DNA of 32,000 bases from Candidatus Harpocratesius repetitus (lineage in GTDB: Archaea > Asgardarchaeota > Lokiarchaeia > Sigyniarchaeales > Promethearchaeaceae). Positions 12,499 through 25,336 of the stretch are shown piece after piece (position 1 is the first letter of the stretch; the number at the start of each line of letters is the position of its first letter). Below the pieces are notes generated by a model, which was not told the DNA's origin, did no database searches, and was given only the letters and a program-made list of their open reading frames with translations. The DNA lies in the NCBI GenBank assembly GCA_021498095.1, contig JAIZWK010000001.1, positions 3,510,001-3,542,000 of the forward strand. Reading direction: 5' to 3'. The position numbers were made by a program, and so were the translations under genes.

Positions 12499-12832
12499 TT
12501 TAATAATAGTTTAAGCAAAAATGAGTAAAAAGAACAACATGTATAATAATTTATGAAAAAAAAGATAATAATAAATCAAGCATGACTAATGGATTAACTG
12601 ATTAGTTTTTTAGAAATACTAATAATATAATATTACTGTTTATATCTTAAAATCTTCAATTTTATTCAACTCACTTAACATAATAATTCAAAAACATGAA
12701 ATTATATTAATAAAAGTAAAGCTCAAATATTGTATTCAAAATATAGTAGTTTAGAGATATTTAAACGAAAGTACGGAAAAAGAATAGAATAATAAAGAAA
12801 TAATAGAGAAAATTAGTCGATATTGATGAAAC

Positions 12833-13492
12833 ATGAAACGCACATTCCGATTACGCCCAATTTTTGCACCTATTGTCAAATTCTTAGCTAAGATTGCGAT
12901 AAATCTTAAAATTACTCCCAATTTTGCTACATGGTTAATGGTTTCATTTTCACTTATATCCTCACTTGGATTACTCTTTTTCCAGAGTTTTATTTGGTTT
13001 GGAGTTTGGATTTTTCTCACAGGGCTACTAGATGGAATAGATGGCGCTATTGCAAGAATGACTAAAAAAACCTCAAAGTTTGGAGGATTTTTTGACTCGA
13101 CTATGGATCGCATTTCTGAAAGTATTATTTTATCAGGATTGATATTATTCACACAAATTTTTCCAACGAATTATTCTCAATGGATATTACTTTTAACAAT
13201 AATTGGCTTTATATTCTCATATTTAATAAGTTATTCCAGAGCTCGTGCAGAATTAGAATTGAAAAGGAGTTTTGTAATTGATAATGATCGTTTTTCGATG
13301 AATATTGGAATCTTAGCACGCTCAGAAAGGTTATTTTATCTTTTTATTATGTCTTGTATTGTTCAGTTTACTTCCCCTCTAATTTTGCTGATATTTATGG
13401 GTTTTTATGTAGTTTTAACTGCTTGGACCTTTCTTGAGAGGTTTTTCACTTATAAATCATATCTGAATGAATTTGTTGAAACAAATGAATGA
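12833..13492 (+). CDS. CDP-alcohol phosphatidyltransferase (archaetidylinositol-phosphate synthase-like)
   Basis: DGIDGAIARMTKKTSKFGGFFDSTMDRISE is the DxxDGxxAR...GxxxDxxxD signature; hydrophobic helices. Confidence 0.92.
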   Translation: MKRTFRLRPIFAPIVKFLAKIAINLKITPNFATWLMVSFSLISSLGLLFFQSFIWFGVWIFLTGLLDGIDGAIARMTKKTSKFGGFFDSTMDRISESIILSGLILFTQIFPTNYSQWILLLTIIGFIFSYLISYSRARAELELKRSFVIDNDRFSMNIGILARSERLFYLFIMSCIVQFTSPLILLIFMGFYVVLTAWTFLERFFTYKSYLNEFVETNE

Positions 13493-13698: not shown

Positions 13699-13756
13699 AA
13701 GAGTTGTAATCGGAAATAAAGACTCTACTTAAGTATTATTTCCAATTGTAATTCTT
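13699..13756 (+). ncRNA. 21-bp RNA hairpin in the rnc leader (candidate RNase III site or small-RNA precursor)
   Basis: 13699-13719 pairs with 13736-13756: 17 Watson-Crick, 3 G·U (on the + transcript), 1 C·A; 16-nt loop. Confidence 0.65.
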
Positions 13757-13828: not shown

Positions 13829-14632
13829 ATGGCTCAAGAAATCTCTCCAGAATTTAAAGAAAAACTATTTAATTGGCTAAAAAAACAAAGAATCATAAAC
13901 ATGGACATAAAAATCTTAATTACAGCCTTCACCCATCCATCATATAAAGGAGTCTTTCCAGAAGTGGAAGATTATGAAAGACTAGAATTCTTAGGAGATG
14001 CGGTTTTGGATCTGGTTTCTGCAGAAGATTTAATCAAACACAGCTCTGCGAATGAAGGAGTATTAACAGAACGTCGAAAACAATTAGTAAATAATGAAAA
14101 TCTTTCCCAAATTTTTGATAGATTAAAGATATCATCTTTTATTCGAACTGCACCTCATTACAAGCCTTCTATTAAGGATAAAGCAAATTTTATTGAAGCC
14201 TTTTTTGGAGCTCTCTTTTTAGAGCACCGCTATGAATATTGCGTTATAGTTTGGCGACAATTTCAAGAAAAAATGGGTAAAATAAAAAAGAAGATTTATC
14301 ATGCTCCATTATCTCCTGAAGATGAACAAAATAAGGAAGAATTGAAACAATTTTATCGCTCAATTGGATTAACCCCAAAAAATGCAAAATCAATGTTACA
14401 AGAACTTAACCAAAAACAAGGATTAGATTTACCCAATTATGAATTAATTGAACATTTTGGACCTGACCATAATCCAACTTTTCGAGTAAAAGTATCAGGT
14501 ATTTTTTTCACAGGACCCCCAAAATGGACAAGATCAGCAATAGGAGAAGGTAAGAGTAAAAAAATTGCCGAAATTAGAGCTGCAGAGAAATTATGTGATC
14601 AAATCTATTTAGATTACATCCCGTTTGATTAA
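13829..14632 (+). CDS. rnc: Ribonuclease III (RNase III domain + dsRBD)
   Basis: ERLEFLGDAVL signature, ANFIEAFFGAL, C-terminal dsRBD (AKSMLQE...GPDH...GEGKSKKIAEIRAA); SD GGAGG at 13815-13819. Confidence 0.96.
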   Translation: MAQEISPEFKEKLFNWLKKQRIINMDIKILITAFTHPSYKGVFPEVEDYERLEFLGDAVLDLVSAEDLIKHSSANEGVLTERRKQLVNNENLSQIFDRLKISSFIRTAPHYKPSIKDKANFIEAFFGALFLEHRYEYCVIVWRQFQEKMGKIKKKIYHAPLSPEDEQNKEELKQFYRSIGLTPKNAKSMLQELNQKQGLDLPNYELIEHFGPDHNPTFRVKVSGIFFTGPPKWTRSAIGEGKSKKIAEIRAAEKLCDQIYLDYIPFD

Positions 14633-14689
14633 GAATAGAAATCAATGAAAGTGAAAAAAATAAAAAGGAAAATTTTTTATTAATATAAT

Positions 14690-14939
14690 AAGATCTCACG
14701 GAAAATGAACCGGAAAGTATCTGAAGGTAAATTGACCGCGAAGACTGTTATATTATTTAATTTATTCATAAGATGGTGCAAAATATAGAAATTTTGCATA
14801 AATTATGGATAAATTAAATATTATCTGTGTTCGCATTCATTGCTAGTATCTCCAGATGTTTTCCAGTTTATTTTACGAGAATTACTCTAGGTCATATTAG
14901 GATTATCTAAGAGAATTCTCTATTTTCCTGTGAGATTTT
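14690..14939 (+). ncRNA. ~250-nt branched structured RNA between rnc and ago
   Basis: Closing stem 14690-14706/14922-14939 (17 bp, 1 bulge); long hairpin ~14702-14874 with 25-, 22- and 8-bp segments; short hairpin 14877-14920; all paired by hand. Confidence 0.7.
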
Positions 14940-14959
14940 GATAAAAAAGTGGTATTGAT

Positions 14960-17413
14960 ATGTCAAAATCTCAAAATAAAGGAAGAAAATCAAATGATGC
15001 ACCTTTAGCATCCCCCTGCTGTCCACAGAAAAAGAAAATAGATCTTGAAATGAATCTTTTTCCTGTGAAGATTTCCAATCTTAAAATCAGTATATATTCA
15101 TGGTTAATTTTTCCAAAAATCGATAATTATAAAGTACAAAGAAATATTCTTGAAATTGCTTTAAGTGAAGAAGCATTATACGAATACATCATTCAAAAAA
15201 ACAAGATCTATCAAAAAAAAAGGCATCCAAATATAAAAAGAGTTGTGCTTTTTCAGAATAAAGAATTTCAAATTGAAATAAATCACCTTGAAACGGTTTA
15301 TCTTTTAGATAATCCAACACTTCAAAACGAAATTTTTGGAAGTATTTGCCAAACTGTGGGATTCGAGCAAATAGGACATAATTACTATTATTCAGCAGAA
15401 AGACAATCCTCACAACTCACACAATCTACAAAAGAATCATTAAAAAGGATATTTCCAGCAATTGAAATAGATGGAGGCAAATACTATTTAAAACAAGGAC
15501 TAACAACTGCGATTCATTCCACCAAGAAAAATTTTTCGATAGATCAAGGAAAAAATGCTATTTCAAATGTTGTTGAATTAGAGCAAACATCAAAACTCAT
15601 TCAAAAAAAGAATTTATTAGAAATAATAATGGATTTGAATAGAAAGGTTAAAGATCATCACAAGATTGAAAATTTACTCATTGGTTCAAGATTTATTACG
15701 CACTACAATAACAGAATATATACAATTCATGGAATTGCTTGGAATAAAGATCCTACTTCTACATTTCAAATTCGCTCAAAGTTGCATCAAAATTTAGAAA
15801 TCACTTTTGAAGAATACTACAAAAAGAATTATCAATTAAAAATTTCAGATCTCCATCAACCTTTAATTATTTATTATCCAATGTCTTCTCAAAAGAGTGC
15901 TACTTCATCAGGATCTCAAGATATACTCTACTTTTTACCAGAGTTTTGTCATCTTTTTGGACTATCAAACCTTGATGCTGATAATTTCAGAATTCGGCAA
16001 GAAATCACCCGAAATACCCAAATGTCACCTTCAGATAGATATAGAAAACTCAAAACATTTGTAGAGAACCAAGATATTCTTGAATTTTTTAAAGTATGGG
16101 GTTTAGATATCGATTCACGGATGATTTCTATGTCTGGAATAAAACTACCAAGTCTAGAGATACAGACTCAAACAGGTGTTTTTCCAATCAATTTTGAACA
16201 ATCAAATTGGCTTTCATTATTAAATCGCTCGCAAGTAATTGATGCTCCTGAATTAAAAAAGTGGATGATATTATATCCAAAAAAATCTATGTCTTTGCAA
16301 GAAGCAAGAAAATTTAGCAATGATTTTCAAAAAATTGCCCAACAAATGGGAATGGTATGTCGACCACCTCAATTACAGGGAGTTTTTGATATGACAAAGT
16401 TTCTGGCAATATTAAAGAAAAATCCTTCTCAACATCATATAAATTCAATCCAATTAATTCTCACAATTACCCCTAATAGGAACAAGACATGTTATCGGAA
16501 AATTAAACAGCTGTGTTATCGAGATCTGGGAATTGCCAATCAAAATGTTGTGCTTAAAAATTTAAGAGATCAAAAAAGAAGAATGCCAATAATCCGAAAT
16601 TTAGTAAGGCAAATTATTTGCAAGGTTCCAAATTTTAATACAAAATATGGCGGGGCTTTATGGAAAATCAAAAATAATTCCATCCCTGACAAAACTTTAA
16701 TTGTTGGAATTGATGTTTGGCATGGCCGTCCCGGAATAGACAAATCTATTGCCGGCATCGTCTTTTCAACTGATAAAGGCTTACATTATACAGCAAATTA
16801 TACAATAACTCCAAGAAAAGGACTGGAATTCATCCACAATTTAGGAAAAATCATAATTACACAACTACAGAATCATTATAACGCAACAAGACAATACTTT
16901 GAAAATATATTAATTTTTCGCGATGGAGTAGGAAACACCCAGTATAACAAGATTTTACAAGAAGAATTCAAGTCTATTCAACAAGAACTAACCAATTCAT
17001 CCATTTTTAGTGAAAAACATCCAAAAATTGCAATAATCTTGGTGAATAAACGAATAAATCGCCGGCTATTTCATAAAAACAAACAAGGACAGATATTGAA
17101 CCCCAAACCCGGAACTTTTATAGAAGATCAATATATAAAATCAGAATTTTCTAATTATTATTTAGTACCCCACTTTTCTCGTTTTGGAACAACCCGACCG
17201 ATTCATATTTCGGTAATTTATAACAATACAAAATACGTTAATTTCCAATTTGTTGAAATTGCAAATATTTTATGTCATTTGAATTACAATTGGGCAGGAA
17301 CAGTTCGCATACCAGCATCTGTGGAATATGCCCATAAAGTTGCCGACTTCATCGGATCAAATCAAATTACATCAATTGCACCAGAATTACTACAAACTCA
17401 ATTCTATTTGTAA
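14960..17413 (+). CDS. ago: Long eukaryote/PIWI-like Argonaute with catalytic DEDH tetrad (probably HrAgo1)
   Basis: PAZ (YNNRIY...TFEEYYKKNY...FLPEFC), MID (YRKIKQ...NQNV...QIICK), PIWI (GIDV D585, E623, RDG D655, YAHK H792, GTTRP, LCHLNYNW); 817 aa. Confidence 0.97.
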   Translation: MSKSQNKGRKSNDAPLASPCCPQKKKIDLEMNLFPVKISNLKISIYSWLIFPKIDNYKVQRNILEIALSEEALYEYIIQKNKIYQKKRHPNIKRVVLFQNKEFQIEINHLETVYLLDNPTLQNEIFGSICQTVGFEQIGHNYYYSAERQSSQLTQSTKESLKRIFPAIEIDGGKYYLKQGLTTAIHSTKKNFSIDQGKNAISNVVELEQTSKLIQKKNLLEIIMDLNRKVKDHHKIENLLIGSRFITHYNNRIYTIHGIAWNKDPTSTFQIRSKLHQNLEITFEEYYKKNYQLKISDLHQPLIIYYPMSSQKSATSSGSQDILYFLPEFCHLFGLSNLDADNFRIRQEITRNTQMSPSDRYRKLKTFVENQDILEFFKVWGLDIDSRMISMSGIKLPSLEIQTQTGVFPINFEQSNWLSLLNRSQVIDAPELKKWMILYPKKSMSLQEARKFSNDFQKIAQQMGMVCRPPQLQGVFDMTKFLAILKKNPSQHHINSIQLILTITPNRNKTCYRKIKQLCYRDLGIANQNVVLKNLRDQKRRMPIIRNLVRQIICKVPNFNTKYGGALWKIKNNSIPDKTLIVGIDVWHGRPGIDKSIAGIVFSTDKGLHYTANYTITPRKGLEFIHNLGKIIITQLQNHYNATRQYFENILIFRDGVGNTQYNKILQEEFKSIQQELTNSSIFSEKHPKIAIILVNKRINRRLFHKNKQGQILNPKPGTFIEDQYIKSEFSNYYLVPHFSRFGTTRPIHISVIYNNTKYVNFQFVEIANILCHLNYNWAGTVRIPASVEYAHKVADFIGSNQITSIAPELLQTQFYL

Positions 17414-17463: not shown

Positions 17464-20400
17464 ATGTCTCTGAAAAATTATCTAAACTCGAATAATCTTT
17501 ATTATGCAAGCATTTATGGACAAAAACTAAAAAAATTAACTTATCTTTTTCAAAATATTCGGGATTCTTTTCGCCCTTATATCCATTTTTTGGACAGAGC
17601 GATTGAAGCAGAGAAAGAAAGAGAGATTTCAGCCCTTTTTAAAATAGTCAAAGACGATTTTACGGTTTCTTTTAAACCAATCACAAAAAAGTTGAAGATA
17701 TTATCAGAAGGTTTTCTCTACTGCGAAGTAGAACAAGATTGGGTTCAATTATTAAATTTTGAAGACATTAACAATAATTATGAAGAATTTGATTGGTCTA
17801 ATTGTGAGAATTTTGAAATTAGTTATATGTCCGATGATGGAGCCAAAACAATAAAAATCTCTAAGAAGAATATTATAGTTTTTGAAGACGACGGAAAAAT
17901 AGATTCTATATATCTTAAGTTCCCAATGAATTATAATGATTCTTATGATTTCTATTATAAACGCGTGAGATTGCAGCTTGAAAAAGTCATTGAAGATCTT
18001 GATCTCATTGAAATAACACATCATGAATATGCACTTGATGTAATTGACATTGAGCATGCAGATTCTCAAAATAGTGTTGTAAAAATCCACTATAGCGGAG
18101 TAATCACGCCGGATGATATTGAACATCTAAGAATTAATGGATTACCGCTTCAAAACCCAAGATTCAAACAGATTTCAGATCTTGGGGATGTTTCAAAGAT
18201 ATTCATTGAAAACAATACTGGAAAAAGACAATTACAAATTCTTAGGAAAGATTTTAAAAAGAACTGTGTATTTGTAGAATATTTCCGTGAAAAAGGCGAT
18301 TATTCAATCTTTGGAGAGGATCAAGAACAGAATCGAATAGAAGTGAAAGAACTTAGATTTGAACCTATTAAAAAAATCCAATTTTTAAATAGAGATATTG
18401 AAACGTTATTCTCTCCTCAATTAATTAATGAAAATCGAAGAGGATTAAATGAATACGCCGTAGATATTAAACCATTACCTAAGAACGGTGAAAAGGTTCG
18501 AGCAGATAATGGAAACGAATATGAATGTATTATAAATAAAAAAAAAAAAAGAACTGAATTGAAGCTGAAATTATTAGAAGAAAACGAAGAAGACATGCAT
18601 GAAATCTCAGAAAAATCACCACTAGATTATTTTTTTGAGGATGATGTGAATGAAGTAATGGGTCATAAGATTTTTGAAATAGCAAAAAATAAAAAACTCA
18701 TTTGGACAATTATTAGAAAAAATCGGGAAGAACGAACAATTTCAATCAAGATCAGCAGCAAAAAAAATTATAAAAATGTAAAATATAATCTAGAACGAAT
18801 GAGTGAAAAGAATTATCCTCTTTATCTCAATCGAAATGTTTATCAATTAAAAATGGAAAGAAATTTCATCAATAGGTTAATGAAAAAACCACTAGATGAT
18901 TATCTCCCCCTTCTCCGATTAGGGGAATCTATTAAAGCAACTAAATATGAATGGGATATTTTTAACCCTTTGGATGAAAAAAAAATTGAATGGGAAATCC
19001 TTACGGAAAATGAGCGAGAAGGAACGGAAAAACAAAGACTATTTGTAGAAAAAGCATTGAATACTCCTGATTTTGCTTTCCTCGAAGGTCCTCCTGGATC
19101 TGGAAAAACAACAGCAATTATAGAATTAATTTTTCAATTAATAAAACAGAATAAAAAAATACTCTTAGCAGCTTCAACTCATGTTGCCATTGACAATGTT
19201 CTTGAAAGAATCAAAAAGTACAAAACAGAATGGTTTAATAGGATTTTACCACTCAGGATAGGAGATAGACACAATATTTCTTCAAAAATCGTAGAATTCC
19301 AAATTGATAATCTATTAAAAACGCACAAAAATGGCTTAGATGGATTGAATTCCCTTATTTTAGATGCTTCTAATTTGGTTTGTGGAACAACCATAGGGAT
19401 TTTAAAACATCCTTGGTTTGATCGAAAGAAGAATCGTAATGTAGATCGAAAAGTCTTTCCAATGTTTGATTATTTAATTATAGATGAATCCAGTAAAACT
19501 ACTTTCCAAGATTTTATTATACCTGCATTGTATGCAAAAAGATGGATTTTAGTTGGTGATATTAAGCAATTAGCACCCTATGCTGAAAATGACTATTTGA
19601 AAAGGTATTTTGAAAAATTAACAGATTATAATAATAAAAATATATTTAATTCTCATGCTCAAAAGGCAAATTATTTGATATTTTTGTTACTACGGCGCTT
19701 TTGCGATAAGTCTTCAAAAAAATTTTCAAAAAAATTAAAATTTTCTGAGAGAATCTGTTTTCCTACTGATGAATCTACTATAAAAGCGTTTTTAGAAGAA
19801 ATAAATAAAAGATATGAGCAAGATATATCAAAGGATCAAATTTTATCTCAAAAATTTCCTATTATCACAATAATAGTAAAGGATCGAACTGCTTTAGCAA
19901 ATGTCAATCCAAAAATAATTGAGATCACTGAATCTGATTTAAAAACCAATATTCAAAAATCTCTTCTATTAGTAGCATCAGATCTTATTTTAATTGATTG
20001 GGATATATATAATAGAAAGGAAAATATTATTCCACCTCATTTTTTTGTCTTAAATCATCCTAACTGGAAAAATAGTCAACAAGCTTTTCGATGGAGATAT
20101 ATCATCGACATTAATAAAAACAAAAATAATAATTCAAAACTTTTGATCGAAAATTTTGAGCGTATTAATCAAGATCTGTCTGAAAAGAACTGGGCTTCTG
20201 AGATCTCTTGGCGATTAATTAGATCCTATGAATTAAGAGCACTTCCAGATAATGAAACTTTGAAAAGATATTATAACGATTTATCTTTTCTCCTCCCGCG
20301 AAAAGATGATATCTCTCGTTTTATTATAAATGCTTGGAGTATTTCGCTACCATCAATTTTAGAGTCGTTACAATCTGGCATTGGCGAAAAATATAGAGGA

Positions 20401-21294
20401 CATATTGAAACAATTTTAAAAACGGGATTTCCAAATGAATTATTTTTTCAAAGGCATGTGAAACTAGAATATCAATTTCGTATGCACAGAGACATTTCAA
20501 AATTTCCACGAAAAGAATTCTATGACTCAAAAGCTCTTCAAGATAGCAAATTAACGGATAGAACATGGCAATATTTTAGATATAGAAGAAATCGAACTTA
20601 TGAAAGCCGCTTTACTTGGATAGATCTCTATTGGAAAGCAAAAAGGAATAGAAATGAAAAGGAGGCTAATCGATTAATCAAAGAATTAAAAGAGTTTCTT
20701 AAATGGGCAGAATCAAATCCAATGAATAATGAAGGAGAAAATTGGACTGTTGCCTGTATAACATTTTATAAAGGGCAAGAAAGACTCATTCGTGAAAAAC
20801 TTAGACAATTAACTGGTCTTACTAACAGAACGAATATCTTTTACTATGGAAATGTGGATATTCTCCTATATACTGTAGATAAAATTCAAGGAAGGGAAGC
20901 GGATATTATATTTTTATCTTTGGTTCGCAATGCACGATTTTATAATGGCAAATATCAAGGGGGAAATTTAGGATTTATGGATAATCCAAACCGTTTAAAC
21001 GTTGCCTTAACACGAGCCAAATATCAACTTGTTATATTAGGCCATATCCTAAATTTTCAAGATCAAAACAACAGTATCCATTTGAAGAATTTAACGAAAG
21101 CAGTTACAATAGAAAAACGTGAAACTCCAAACCGTCGACAAAATAGAGAAAATTGGATTAATAGCAAATCAAATCAAAGAAAAAATCAACAATTCATACC
21201 ATTTTCTGAAAAATCCCGTCGAAAACGGAAAAATTCTAAGAAAAATCATTCAAAAATTAATAAAAATACACGTAATCAATGGAGAAGAAGATAA
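17464..21294 (+). CDS. SF1B helicase of the Upf1/DNA2/NAM7 (MOV10-like) family
   Basis: GPPGSGKTT, ASTHVAIDNVLER, IIDESS, LVGDIKQL, QFRMH, TVDKIQGREAD, RLNVALTRAK; ~500-aa unknown N-terminus and basic C-terminal tail. Confidence 0.95.
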   Translation: MSLKNYLNSNNLYYASIYGQKLKKLTYLFQNIRDSFRPYIHFLDRAIEAEKEREISALFKIVKDDFTVSFKPITKKLKILSEGFLYCEVEQDWVQLLNFEDINNNYEEFDWSNCENFEISYMSDDGAKTIKISKKNIIVFEDDGKIDSIYLKFPMNYNDSYDFYYKRVRLQLEKVIEDLDLIEITHHEYALDVIDIEHADSQNSVVKIHYSGVITPDDIEHLRINGLPLQNPRFKQISDLGDVSKIFIENNTGKRQLQILRKDFKKNCVFVEYFREKGDYSIFGEDQEQNRIEVKELRFEPIKKIQFLNRDIETLFSPQLINENRRGLNEYAVDIKPLPKNGEKVRADNGNEYECIINKKKKRTELKLKLLEENEEDMHEISEKSPLDYFFEDDVNEVMGHKIFEIAKNKKLIWTIIRKNREERTISIKISSKKNYKNVKYNLERMSEKNYPLYLNRNVYQLKMERNFINRLMKKPLDDYLPLLRLGESIKATKYEWDIFNPLDEKKIEWEILTENEREGTEKQRLFVEKALNTPDFAFLEGPPGSGKTTAIIELIFQLIKQNKKILLAASTHVAIDNVLERIKKYKTEWFNRILPLRIGDRHNISSKIVEFQIDNLLKTHKNGLDGLNSLILDASNLVCGTTIGILKHPWFDRKKNRNVDRKVFPMFDYLIIDESSKTTFQDFIIPALYAKRWILVGDIKQLAPYAENDYLKRYFEKLTDYNNKNIFNSHAQKANYLIFLLLRRFCDKSSKKFSKKLKFSERICFPTDESTIKAFLEEINKRYEQDISKDQILSQKFPIITIIVKDRTALANVNPKIIEITESDLKTNIQKSLLLVASDLILIDWDIYNRKENIIPPHFFVLNHPNWKNSQQAFRWRYIIDINKNKNNNSKLLIENFERINQDLSEKNWASEISWRLIRSYELRALPDNETLKRYYNDLSFLLPRKDDISRFIINAWSISLPSILESLQSGIGEKYRGHIETILKTGFPNELFFQRHVKLEYQFRMHRDISKFPRKEFYDSKALQDSKLTDRTWQYFRYRRNRTYESRFTWIDLYWKAKRNRNEKEANRLIKELKEFLKWAESNPMNNEGENWTVACITFYKGQERLIREKLRQLTGLTNRTNIFYYGNVDILLYTVDKIQGREADIIFLSLVRNARFYNGKYQGGNLGFMDNPNRLNVALTRAKYQLVILGHILNFQDQNNSIHLKNLTKAVTIEKRETPNRRQNRENWINSKSNQRKNQQFIPFSEKSRRKRKNSKKNHSKINKNTRNQWRRR

Positions 21295-24724: not shown

Positions 24725-25336
24725 ATTATAAAAAATCCATACGAAACAGAAGTTATAGGAGATTTTCTAAATATTAATCATATCTTAGACAGATCAACCT
24801 CAAACGGTCCAGGTCTAAGAACAGTCATTTGGCTTCAAGGGTGCCTTAAGCATTGTGAAGGATGTAATAATAGAAATATGTGGCCTTTTAAAATAAAACA
24901 AAAGATTGGAGTTAAAGAATTAATAGATCGAATTAGAAAGAATAAAGAAACGTTTGAAATCGAAGGAATTACATTGAGTGGAGGGGAACCACTTCTTCAA
25001 TGGAGAATCTTGATTCCTTTTTTGCAGGAAATAAAAAAAATGGAACTTTCAGTAATATGTTTTTCAGGGTATACATGGGAAGAAATAAATTGTGCTAAAT
25101 TTAAACTTGTACTCCCACTAATTGATATTTTGGTTTCAGGTCCATTTATGCAAAAAGAAAAAGGAAACTTACCTTTAAGAGGCTCAAATAATCAAGAAAT
25201 TCATTTTTTAACTAATAGATATGATAACTCCGATATTAAAGAGCAAAGTACTGAAATCTTGATCGATACTGATGGTAAAATTACAATCACAGGATTTCCA
25301 TCAAAAGATATTTTAGATTTTTTTTCTAATTATTAA
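24725..25336 (+). CDS. Radical SAM protein, NrdG/activase-like; real N-terminus lies upstream of the tracked ATG (24878)
   Basis: In-frame NGPGLRTVIWLQGCLKHCEGCNN (CxxxCxxC at 24842-24865) precedes the ATG; GITLSGGEPLLQ and LIDILVSGPF follow. Confidence 0.85.
   Translation: MIKNPYETEVIGDFLNINHILDRSTSNGPGLRTVIWLQGCLKHCEGCNNRNMWPFKIKQKIGVKELIDRIRKNKETFEIEGITLSGGEPLLQWRILIPFLQEIKKMELSVICFSGYTWEEINCAKFKLVLPLIDILVSGPFMQKEKGNLPLRGSNNQEIHFLTNRYDNSDIKEQSTEILIDTDGKITITGFPSKDILDFFSNY

Follow-up and report, generated by a model that had tools for sequence, protein, structure and literature searches.

The operon of the Argonaute HrAgo1 in the Lokiarchaeon 'Candidatus Harpocratesius repetitus' contains a 327-nt spacer between its RNase III gene, rnc, and the Argonaute gene, hrAgo1. 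Here, we describe a large, branched RNA fold predicted for positions 14690-14939 of this spacer (the spacer element), together with a smaller hairpin in the rnc leader, and we consider whether the two may form an RNase III-responsive regulatory module acting in cis. All positions refer to the window, the whole 32,000-nt stretch of DNA that was analysed (G000:C1:3510001-3542000, where G000 is the closed source genome of 4.36 Mb and 31% GC). We identified the locus as the published HrAgo1 operon because its 817-aa PAZ-PIWI protein matches PDB 8r3z 'HrAgo1' across all 817 residues (E = 0).

Among known prokaryotic proteins, HrAgo1 is the closest relative of the eukaryotic PIWI proteins. According to the HrAgo1 paper, it binds 15-25-nt 5'-phosphorylated RNAs and works with a microRNA (miRNA) hairpin precursor in human cells. 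The same paper points out the rnc and helicase genes on either side and suggests for them a Dicer-like, primordial guide-generating role, and its authors leave the natural substrates and the physiology open; its small-RNA data come from E. coli with a codon-optimised gene, the spacer not being included. Neither the preprint nor the Nature Communications version, nor the few later citing papers, nor the searchable literature mentions an intergenic or hairpin RNA at this locus, and to that extent the RNA is undescribed, as the initial annotation of this DNA had supposed.

The annotated setting, namely a spacer lying between an RNase III gene with an intact catalytic motif and the gene of an RNA-guided slicer, holds. 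Rnc retains the ERLEFLGD catalytic signature, the downstream catalytic Glu and the domain that binds double-stranded RNA (dsRBD). Near residue 120 it carries an Asn (ANFIEAFFGA) in place of the second-to-last catalytic Asp of the bacterial enzymes, and Drosha RIIIDa (ANCFEALIGA) likewise has Asn at that position in a HMMER alignment. The best PDB matches of Rnc are DCL4 and Drosha, with scores comparable to those of bacterial RNase III.

Fold and rarity of the spacer element

Folded with RNAfold, the + strand of the element reaches a minimum free energy (MFE) of -88.9 kcal/mol (z = -10.2), and none of the 200 dinucleotide shuffles used as controls was as good. The corresponding values are -72.2 kcal/mol (z = -9.15) for the - strand and z = -9.2 for the spacer as a whole. 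The predicted structure contains 86 Watson-Crick and 9 G·U pairs, in which a closing helix, P1, bounds a three-way junction that holds a 173-nt imperfect hairpin and a second domain, P3 (Table 1). All helices that had been paired by hand recur in the MFE structure, including the 14702-14726/14850-14874 segment with 20 Watson-Crick pairs, 3 G·U pairs and 2 mismatches (C·A and A·C), the GCGAA/UUCGC pairing at 14738-14742/14830-14834, the distal 14750-14771/14803-14824 helix (20 Watson-Crick pairs, 1 G·U, 1 U·U), the apical stem with its 6-nt loop (14776-14784/14791-14799), and P3. Two details were revised. P1, drawn as 17 bp with a bulged U, is 12 bp in the MFE structure, from which the extension through 14702-14706 is absent. 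The second conformer proposed from those shared bases remains as a less stable form, at -85.0 against -88.9 kcal/mol in the one register scored (with C14927 bulged, not U14929 as originally proposed), and the extension has a pair probability of 0.18.

The long hairpin (pair probabilities of 0.87-0.99 across contexts) and P3 are unaffected by inclusion of the coding flanks, both keeping values of 0.95 or more, whereas the pair probability of P1 is 0.88-0.93 in the spacer alone and 0.02-0.03 with the flanks. When formed, P1 stacked on the basal helices H2 and H3 of the hairpin gives a near-continuous helix of ~38 bp. The + strand has 9 G·U pairs and 3 A·C mismatches, the latter being those that would turn into G·U on the - strand; the excess of G·U pairs taken earlier as a sign of RNA-level selection is seen as a lean towards the sense strand, one that is not significant alone.

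No Rfam covariance model matched 14000-15500 at E <= 1, and a search of the spacer for small open reading frames (ORFs) returned chance ORFs of 24-41 aa and nothing else. A promoter and terminator scan gave nothing useful, its models being of bacterial type and not applicable to archaea. A T6-T7 tract follows the rnc stop codon, and a TATA-like TAATATAA lies just upstream of P1, where it is conserved in the second genome that carries the element (G017, see below).

Table 1. Positions and properties of the genes and predicted RNA features at the HrAgo1 locus (energies in kcal/mol).
Feature	Position in window	Strand	Properties
rnc leader hairpin	13699-13756	+	20-bp stem, one C·A mismatch, 16-nt loop; ends 72 nt before rnc ATG
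rnc	13829-14632	+	Class-1 RNase III (RNase III domain and dsRBD, 267 aa); Pfam PF00636, PF14622, PF00035
P1 5' strand (switch strand 1)	14690-14701	+	12 bp with 14928-14939; 2 C-G to U-A compensatory changes relative to G017
Long imperfect hairpin	14702-14874	+	173 nt, ~66 bp; alone -61.6 on + strand, -48.6 on - strand
H2 and H3, basal helices of long hairpin	14702-14710/14866-14874 and 14712-14723/14853-14864	+	Conserved C·A mismatch between them (14711/14865)
Upper part of long hairpin		+	Looser middle; distal AU-rich 30-bp helix; 6-nt apical loop at 14785-14790
P3 hairpin	14877-14920	+	Second domain within P1; in MFE structure, pair probability ~1.0
Hairpin around ago translation start	14923-14986	+	14923-14929/14980-14986 and 14931-14943/14961-14973; MFE -17.7, z = -4.4
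P1 3' strand (switch strand 2)	14928-14939	+	Common to P1 and the alternative start-codon hairpin
hrAgo1	14960-17413	+	PAZ-PIWI Argonaute, 817 aa; PDB 8r3z; Pfam PAZ, Piwi
Near-copy of P1 3' strand within ago ORF	15059-15077	+	11-nt exact repeat with 14923-14933; ends in UUUCCAAU half-motif
SF1 (superfamily 1, Upf1-like) helicase gene	17464-21294	+	Third gene of operon; Pfam AAA_11, AAA_12; described in HrAgo1 paper

The element is single-copy, its only matches in the 4.36-Mb genome being itself and its own reverse complement. Because it is single-copy, and since no pattern of target-site duplication was found, a miniature inverted-repeat transposable element (MITE) or other dispersed palindromic repeat, which had been named as the finding that would overturn an RNA-level reading, was ruled out. 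After correction for GC content, the fold exceeds all 9,600 grid windows folded, a sample covering 27% of the genome, and comparable raw energies occurred only in windows of 50-59% GC. The whole genome was also scanned for palindromes (a prefilter that can miss heavily gapped structures) and 475 candidate centres were folded, among which the element came 4th; copy number was checked for the top 40, and no other single-copy hairpin among the scored candidates ranks higher. One repeat family of ~100 copies accounts for ranks 1-3 and for most of the others, and ranks 5-7 are repeats of 37-211 copies.

The ~100-copy family merits a separate comment. Its members (e.g., centres 275786, 3262335 and 514622, with tandem copies at ~1859460-1859776, all on G000:C1 and outside the window) share ~87-100% pairwise identity over 300 nt, form strand-asymmetric hairpins (e.g., -69.6 vs -47.7 kcal/mol), and outrank nearly all other hairpins of the genome. 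Such hairpin-forming repeats could be sources of double-stranded RNA (dsRNA), or targets, for an RNase III/Ago pathway.

Occurrence at other rnc and Ago loci

An RNase III match is present in 198 of 400 genomes of the phylum, and an HrAgo1-type Ago was found in a single genome, G012, among the 160 other genomes searched in the class (31% identity). We folded the downstream spacers of the 12 rnc homologues in which these are long enough, and three are structured: those of the window (z about -9.1), G012 (z = -5.7) and G017 (z = -4.4).

G017 supplies the one sequence homologue. Its rnc is 58% identical to that of the window, and its 501-nt spacer aligns with the window spacer in three collinear blastn segments (E of 9e-5 to 0.014, in a small search space); a class-wide BLAST with the spacer missed G017 and returned short AT-rich chance matches only. 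As in the window, a P1 helix encloses a long hairpin and a second domain (-88.6 kcal/mol, z = -6.3), the counterpart of P3 being a larger domain at ~L042:2968-3130 (L042 = G017:C157) closed by a 21-bp stem. Among the 34 positions of the basal helices P1, H2 and H3 that were mapped between the two genomes, 23 are unchanged, including the C·A mismatch; the others comprise four two-sided changes and three one-sided changes that still pair, one inserted G·U pair, and three broken pairs. In its distal part, the hairpin sequence has diverged, and the fold is still a long hairpin.

The genes behind the G017 element are not those of the HrAgo1 operon. Downstream lie a radical-SAM gene, an unknown gene, bpMoxR and VWA (L042:3168-10889), with an OLD-family (AAA_15 and TOPRIM) nuclease nearby, and the neighbourhood is conflict-system-like. 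No Piwi gene was found in G017, a genome that is 74% complete. The element thus tracks rnc, not ago.

At the G012 locus the order is rnc, a 760-nt spacer, ago and a gene for a mini-RNase III. This spacer has no sequence similarity to that of the window, contains several 20-30-bp hairpins, and folds better in sense (z = -7.6) than in antisense (z = -3.6), the corresponding values for its inner 436 nt being -7.0 and -6.2. On the same contig (L011 = G012:C109; 7701-8168 on the - strand and 12620-13258 on the + strand), the 155-aa mini-RNase III after Ago consists of the catalytic domain only and takes the place of the helicase; an ESCRT-III/Snf7 gene lies divergent, upstream of rnc. Two further loci, in G307 (L139 = G307:C4, 1760-4922) and G205 (L140 = G205:C143, 2693-5765), have co-oriented rnc and Ago genes that overlap by 17 and 35 nt, respectively, and therefore have no spacer; this arrangement implies translational coupling, not a structured spacer. 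Scanning metagenomes with the rnc alignment yielded relatives of <=37% identity only, none of them adjoining an Ago.

The source genome holds a second rnc paralogue (C1:58393-59184, 68% identical), which has neither hairpin and a downstream z of ~0, as well as a weak third RNase III-like frame (G000:C1:2550012-2550293). In a tree of rnc sequences, this paralogue and the only rnc found in G014, a genome of the same genus, form a weak group (support 83/85), and the Ago-linked rnc may therefore be an accessory copy of the genome. Farther along the window, downstream of the helicase gene, lie PLD-like, Fer4_12/radical-SAM and AAA+ genes; counted from its first ATG, the Fer4_12/radical-SAM-like ORF (24878-25336) encodes only 152 aa, and its match to the Pfam model starts at position 28.

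Alternative pairing at the ago start and the rnc leader hairpin

The 3' strand of P1 has a second partner. It can pair with codons 1-9 of ago, forming a hairpin around the translation start whose loop holds the Shine-Dalgarno (SD)-like region and whose stem takes in the U and G of the AUG; this hairpin and P1 are mutually exclusive. Their predicted energies are close, with -19.6 kcal/mol for the P1 duplex vs -17.7 kcal/mol for the start hairpin. A fold of this stability is rare at gene starts in the genome: it was matched by 2 of 1,200 long-ORF start regions (0.17%; mean -6.5, standard deviation 3.2). Within the ago ORF, the near-copy of the P1 3' strand at 15059-15077 would form a predicted duplex of -13.8 kcal/mol with the P1 5' strand, compared to -19.6 for P1, and it is possible that this segment is a decoy partner of that strand.

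The three-strand arrangement recurs at the two other structured loci. In G017, an equivalent start-codon pairing joins GAUUUUGAC with GUCAAAAUC. The leader and first four codons of the downstream gene (ATGTCAAAATC) are conserved between G000 and G017 although the genes are unrelated, which we explain by the pairing of this strand in the start-codon hairpin. In G012, whose sequence is unrelated, a 15-17-bp closing helix has a 3' strand that overlaps an 11-bp perfect complement of ago codons 5-9, and the SD is partly paired within the loop of the start hairpin. At each of the three loci, the end of the closing helix lies 20-24 nt upstream of the AUG, and the 3' strand of this helix is shared with the start-codon hairpin.

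On the other side of rnc, the leader hairpin carries a AAUCGGAAA/UUUCCAAUU helix motif and folds significantly as a local structure (sense -16.5 kcal/mol, z = -4.7; antisense -15.0, z = -3.4); the entire rnc leader taken as a structured region is not significant (z = -0.4). A leader hairpin also precedes the G017 rnc (L042:1717-1773), with 21 bp including five G·U pairs, and ends 83 nt before the ATG; its sense fold (-22.2 kcal/mol, z = -7.1) compares with an antisense fold of -12.1 kcal/mol and 12 bp. Aligned over 21 pairs, the two leaders have 95% of cells paired, vs 34-55% in slid controls, with two two-sided and four one-sided changes; for an alignment of two rows, a shuffle control is uninformative. 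The other 11 rnc loci have no such hairpin, and a scan of a collection of species-representative genomes with the leader core returned, among archaea, only the G017 contig itself.

The helix AAYYGGAAA/UUUCCARUU is found at the base of the spacer hairpin as well as in the leader hairpin, the latter in both G000 and G017. Alone, the motif is not diagnostic: there are 11 AAYCGGAA…TTTCCART pairs genome-wide, as many as chance predicts. Only two of these 11 motif pairs have their half-sites paired inside a strongly stable hairpin, and they are the two that flank rnc. The sense strand gave the better fold in four of the five hairpins tested.

Interpretation and comparison with known systems

The association of the element with rnc, together with the competition between its closing helix and the start-codon hairpin, points to cis-regulation. 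We propose that the two hairpins constitute an RNase III-responsive module for autoregulation of rnc and control of ago expression, a proposal that we judge to stand at about an even chance of being correct. The two dsRNA elements bracketing rnc would be cis-substrates or sensors of the RNase III that it encodes. The 20-bp leader hairpin would mediate feedback of RNase III on its own mRNA, in the manner of rncO, and the 250-nt spacer element would act as an intercistronic processing and control module separating the rnc and ago cistrons, with the ~38-bp P1+H2/H3 helix as an RNase III-sized target. With P1 intact, the ago start region would be open; once the element is cut or unfolded, strand 2 would be freed and the hairpin could close over the ago start codon, with an effect on how the processed ago mRNA is translated and/or how stable it is, so that Ago output would be tied to RNase III activity. 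On the sequence, either switch state could be the 'on' state, and small RNAs released from the hairpin could be by-products. We infer the transcription of the spacer, its cleavage by RNase III and the direction of any regulatory effect; the sequences themselves show the folds and how rare they are, their conservation alongside rnc, the covariation, and helices that exclude one another at three loci. The proposal draws on leader stems of 20-21 bp, a size suited to class-1 RNase III; sense-strand dsRNA of at least about two helical turns at an RNase III-linked locus; two hairpins that are both conserved, with compensatory changes, next to the rnc orthologue of G017; and, as in riboswitches and attenuators, one strand with two partners, one of them over a translation start. 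The earlier suggestion that the element is an RNase III substrate is plausible, and 'RNase III processing site', which the initial annotation offered as its alternative, fits better than 'pre-miRNA'.

Several observations weigh against this proposal. P1 is predicted to be thermodynamically fragile and to be displaced by alternative pairings once the coding flanks are included. The covariation is suggestive, and its statistics are weak with two homologous sequences (G000 and G017) and one analogue (G012). The downstream element of G017 folds slightly better in antisense (-93.9 vs -88.6 kcal/mol). Finally, these hairpins are missing from the genome's other rnc paralogue and from most rnc homologues, so autoregulation of this kind is not general to Asgard rnc.

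The favoured interpretation of the initial annotation was a guide precursor: 5'-phosphorylated small RNAs, diced by RNase III from the long hairpin and possibly also from the leader hairpin, would be loaded into HrAgo1, providing a hard-wired guide source, like a pre-miRNA or a hairpin RNA (hpRNA), for regulation or self-priming. The location of a long imperfect hairpin (173 nt and ~66 bp, well above the ~22-bp stem expected at minimum of such a precursor) between the genes of RNase III and an RNA-guided, RNA-cleaving Ago invites this interpretation, as do the guide length of the leader stem, the binding of short 5'-phosphorylated RNAs by HrAgo1 and the use by this Ago of a miRNA hairpin precursor, and the several hairpins in the long spacer of the second HrAgo1-type locus (G012). 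We nevertheless consider it unlikely. The sole sequence homologue adjoins an rnc orthologue but precedes a radical-SAM/MoxR/VWA cluster in a genome, 74% complete, where no Piwi was found, and the co-oriented rnc-Ago operons of G307 and G205 do without a spacer. Conservation between G000 and G017 lies in the basal helices and switch strands, whereas the distal 30-bp duplex, from which guides might be expected, has diverged. Moreover, searches of the genome and of viral and phage collections gave no extended complementary target: the rest of the genome held no significant complement, the phage collection likewise held none, and one 21-nt segment of the 5' arm had no exact match in viral contigs. 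A broader, proto-RNA interference (RNAi) version would have RNase III cut the operon hairpins, the resulting small RNAs load HrAgo1, and the cleavage also set the dosage of rnc and ago as in Drosha-DGCR8; we regard it as quite improbable, yet if it were true these hairpins would be the first natural dsRNA substrates, and the first sources of guides, for RNA silencing in an archaeon.

The structures might also function without RNase III, as a 5' untranslated region or intercistronic RNA acting alone or via another factor, for example as an exonuclease stabiliser, a protein-binding platform, or a riboswitch-like sensor that uses the switch between P1 and the start hairpin. The three-strand switch needs no RNase III, and the TATA-like TAATATAA in both genomes, together with the T tract after the rnc stop, makes an independent transcript conceivable. 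The confinement of the element to one rnc lineage and the matching helix motif in the rnc leader speak against such independence, long near-perfect dsRNA would be odd for a ligand sensor, and no Rfam family was matched; on balance we attach little likelihood to an insulator or leader of this sort. Least probable, and in our view very unlikely, is a feature of the DNA itself (a palindrome or cruciform, a protein-binding inverted repeat, or a relic of a mobile element) with no RNA function. That both strands fold well, that the downstream element of G017 lacks a strand bias in favour of sense, and that the genome is rich in hairpin-forming repeats would all suit it; in addition, the modules of G000 and G017 precede different gene cassettes, which suggests recombination. 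It is at odds with a single-copy element free of a target-site duplication pattern, with the 9-to-3 ratio of G·U to A·C, with the better sense folds in four of five hairpins, including that of the G017 leader (21 bp in sense, 12 bp in antisense), and with a branched architecture and a codon pairing that make sense only for RNA.

RNase III-responsive regulation, the reading that we prefer, has bacterial and phage counterparts, and to our knowledge it has not been described in archaea. E. coli RNase III autoregulates via rncO. Like rncO, the leader hairpin described here places about two turns of dsRNA stem in the 5' leader of the very gene that encodes RNase III, and the logic that we propose, an enzyme cutting its own mRNA, is the same. 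Unlike rncO, it belongs to an Asgard gene, has no sequence relation to rncO and no Rfam match, is accompanied by a second, larger element downstream of rnc, and its cleavage is putative. RNase III sites also control how the phage lambda N, T7 and adhE mRNAs are translated or how stable they are, the cut either remodelling the region of translation initiation or leaving behind a hairpin that stabilises. The spacer element resembles these T7 and lambda sites and the E. coli adhE leader in being a structured intercistronic or leader dsRNA with internal stem mismatches, but it is far larger and branched, with P1 around a 173-nt hairpin and P3, and in an explicit three-strand arrangement it can pair instead with the opening codons of the gene that follows.

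Among eukaryotic systems, the Microprocessor cleaves pri-miRNA-like hairpins in the DGCR8 mRNA. In both cases an RNase III is linked to a hairpin in the mRNA of a silencing component, and cleavage would set dosage and could release a small RNA; here, however, the hairpin lies between rnc and ago of a prokaryotic operon, its processing is putative, and its G017 homologue has no silencing gene downstream. Eukaryotic pre- and pri-miRNAs and hpRNAs are similar in that a long imperfect hairpin with G·U pairs and mismatches is linked to an RNase III and a PIWI/AGO-type slicer. They differ in that the putative guide region here is not conserved, the sole sequence homologue is not Ago-linked, and the hairpin would sit in an operon transcript. 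A prokaryotic Ago co-encoded with an RNase that is proposed or shown to supply RNA guides is also seen in AmAgo-Agap (PMC11162769), where a HEPN RNase acts on single-stranded RNA, the guides are 5'-OH with a 5'-A, the targets are DNA, and no dedicated structured RNA was reported.

For the HrAgo1 operon, the hairpins represent conserved candidate dsRNA substrates supplied from within the operon, and the competition between P1 and the start-codon hairpin is a specific model that is testable by mutation. They also bring a caution for the view of the operon as a guide system, as the RNA is linked to rnc rather than to Ago; the 'pre-miRNA' interpretation is then a minority possibility, with a large consequence if true. 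Set beside the systems above, the hairpins are best explained as RNase III-linked cis-regulation in an archaeal variant, one in which the ago start carries an explicit switch.

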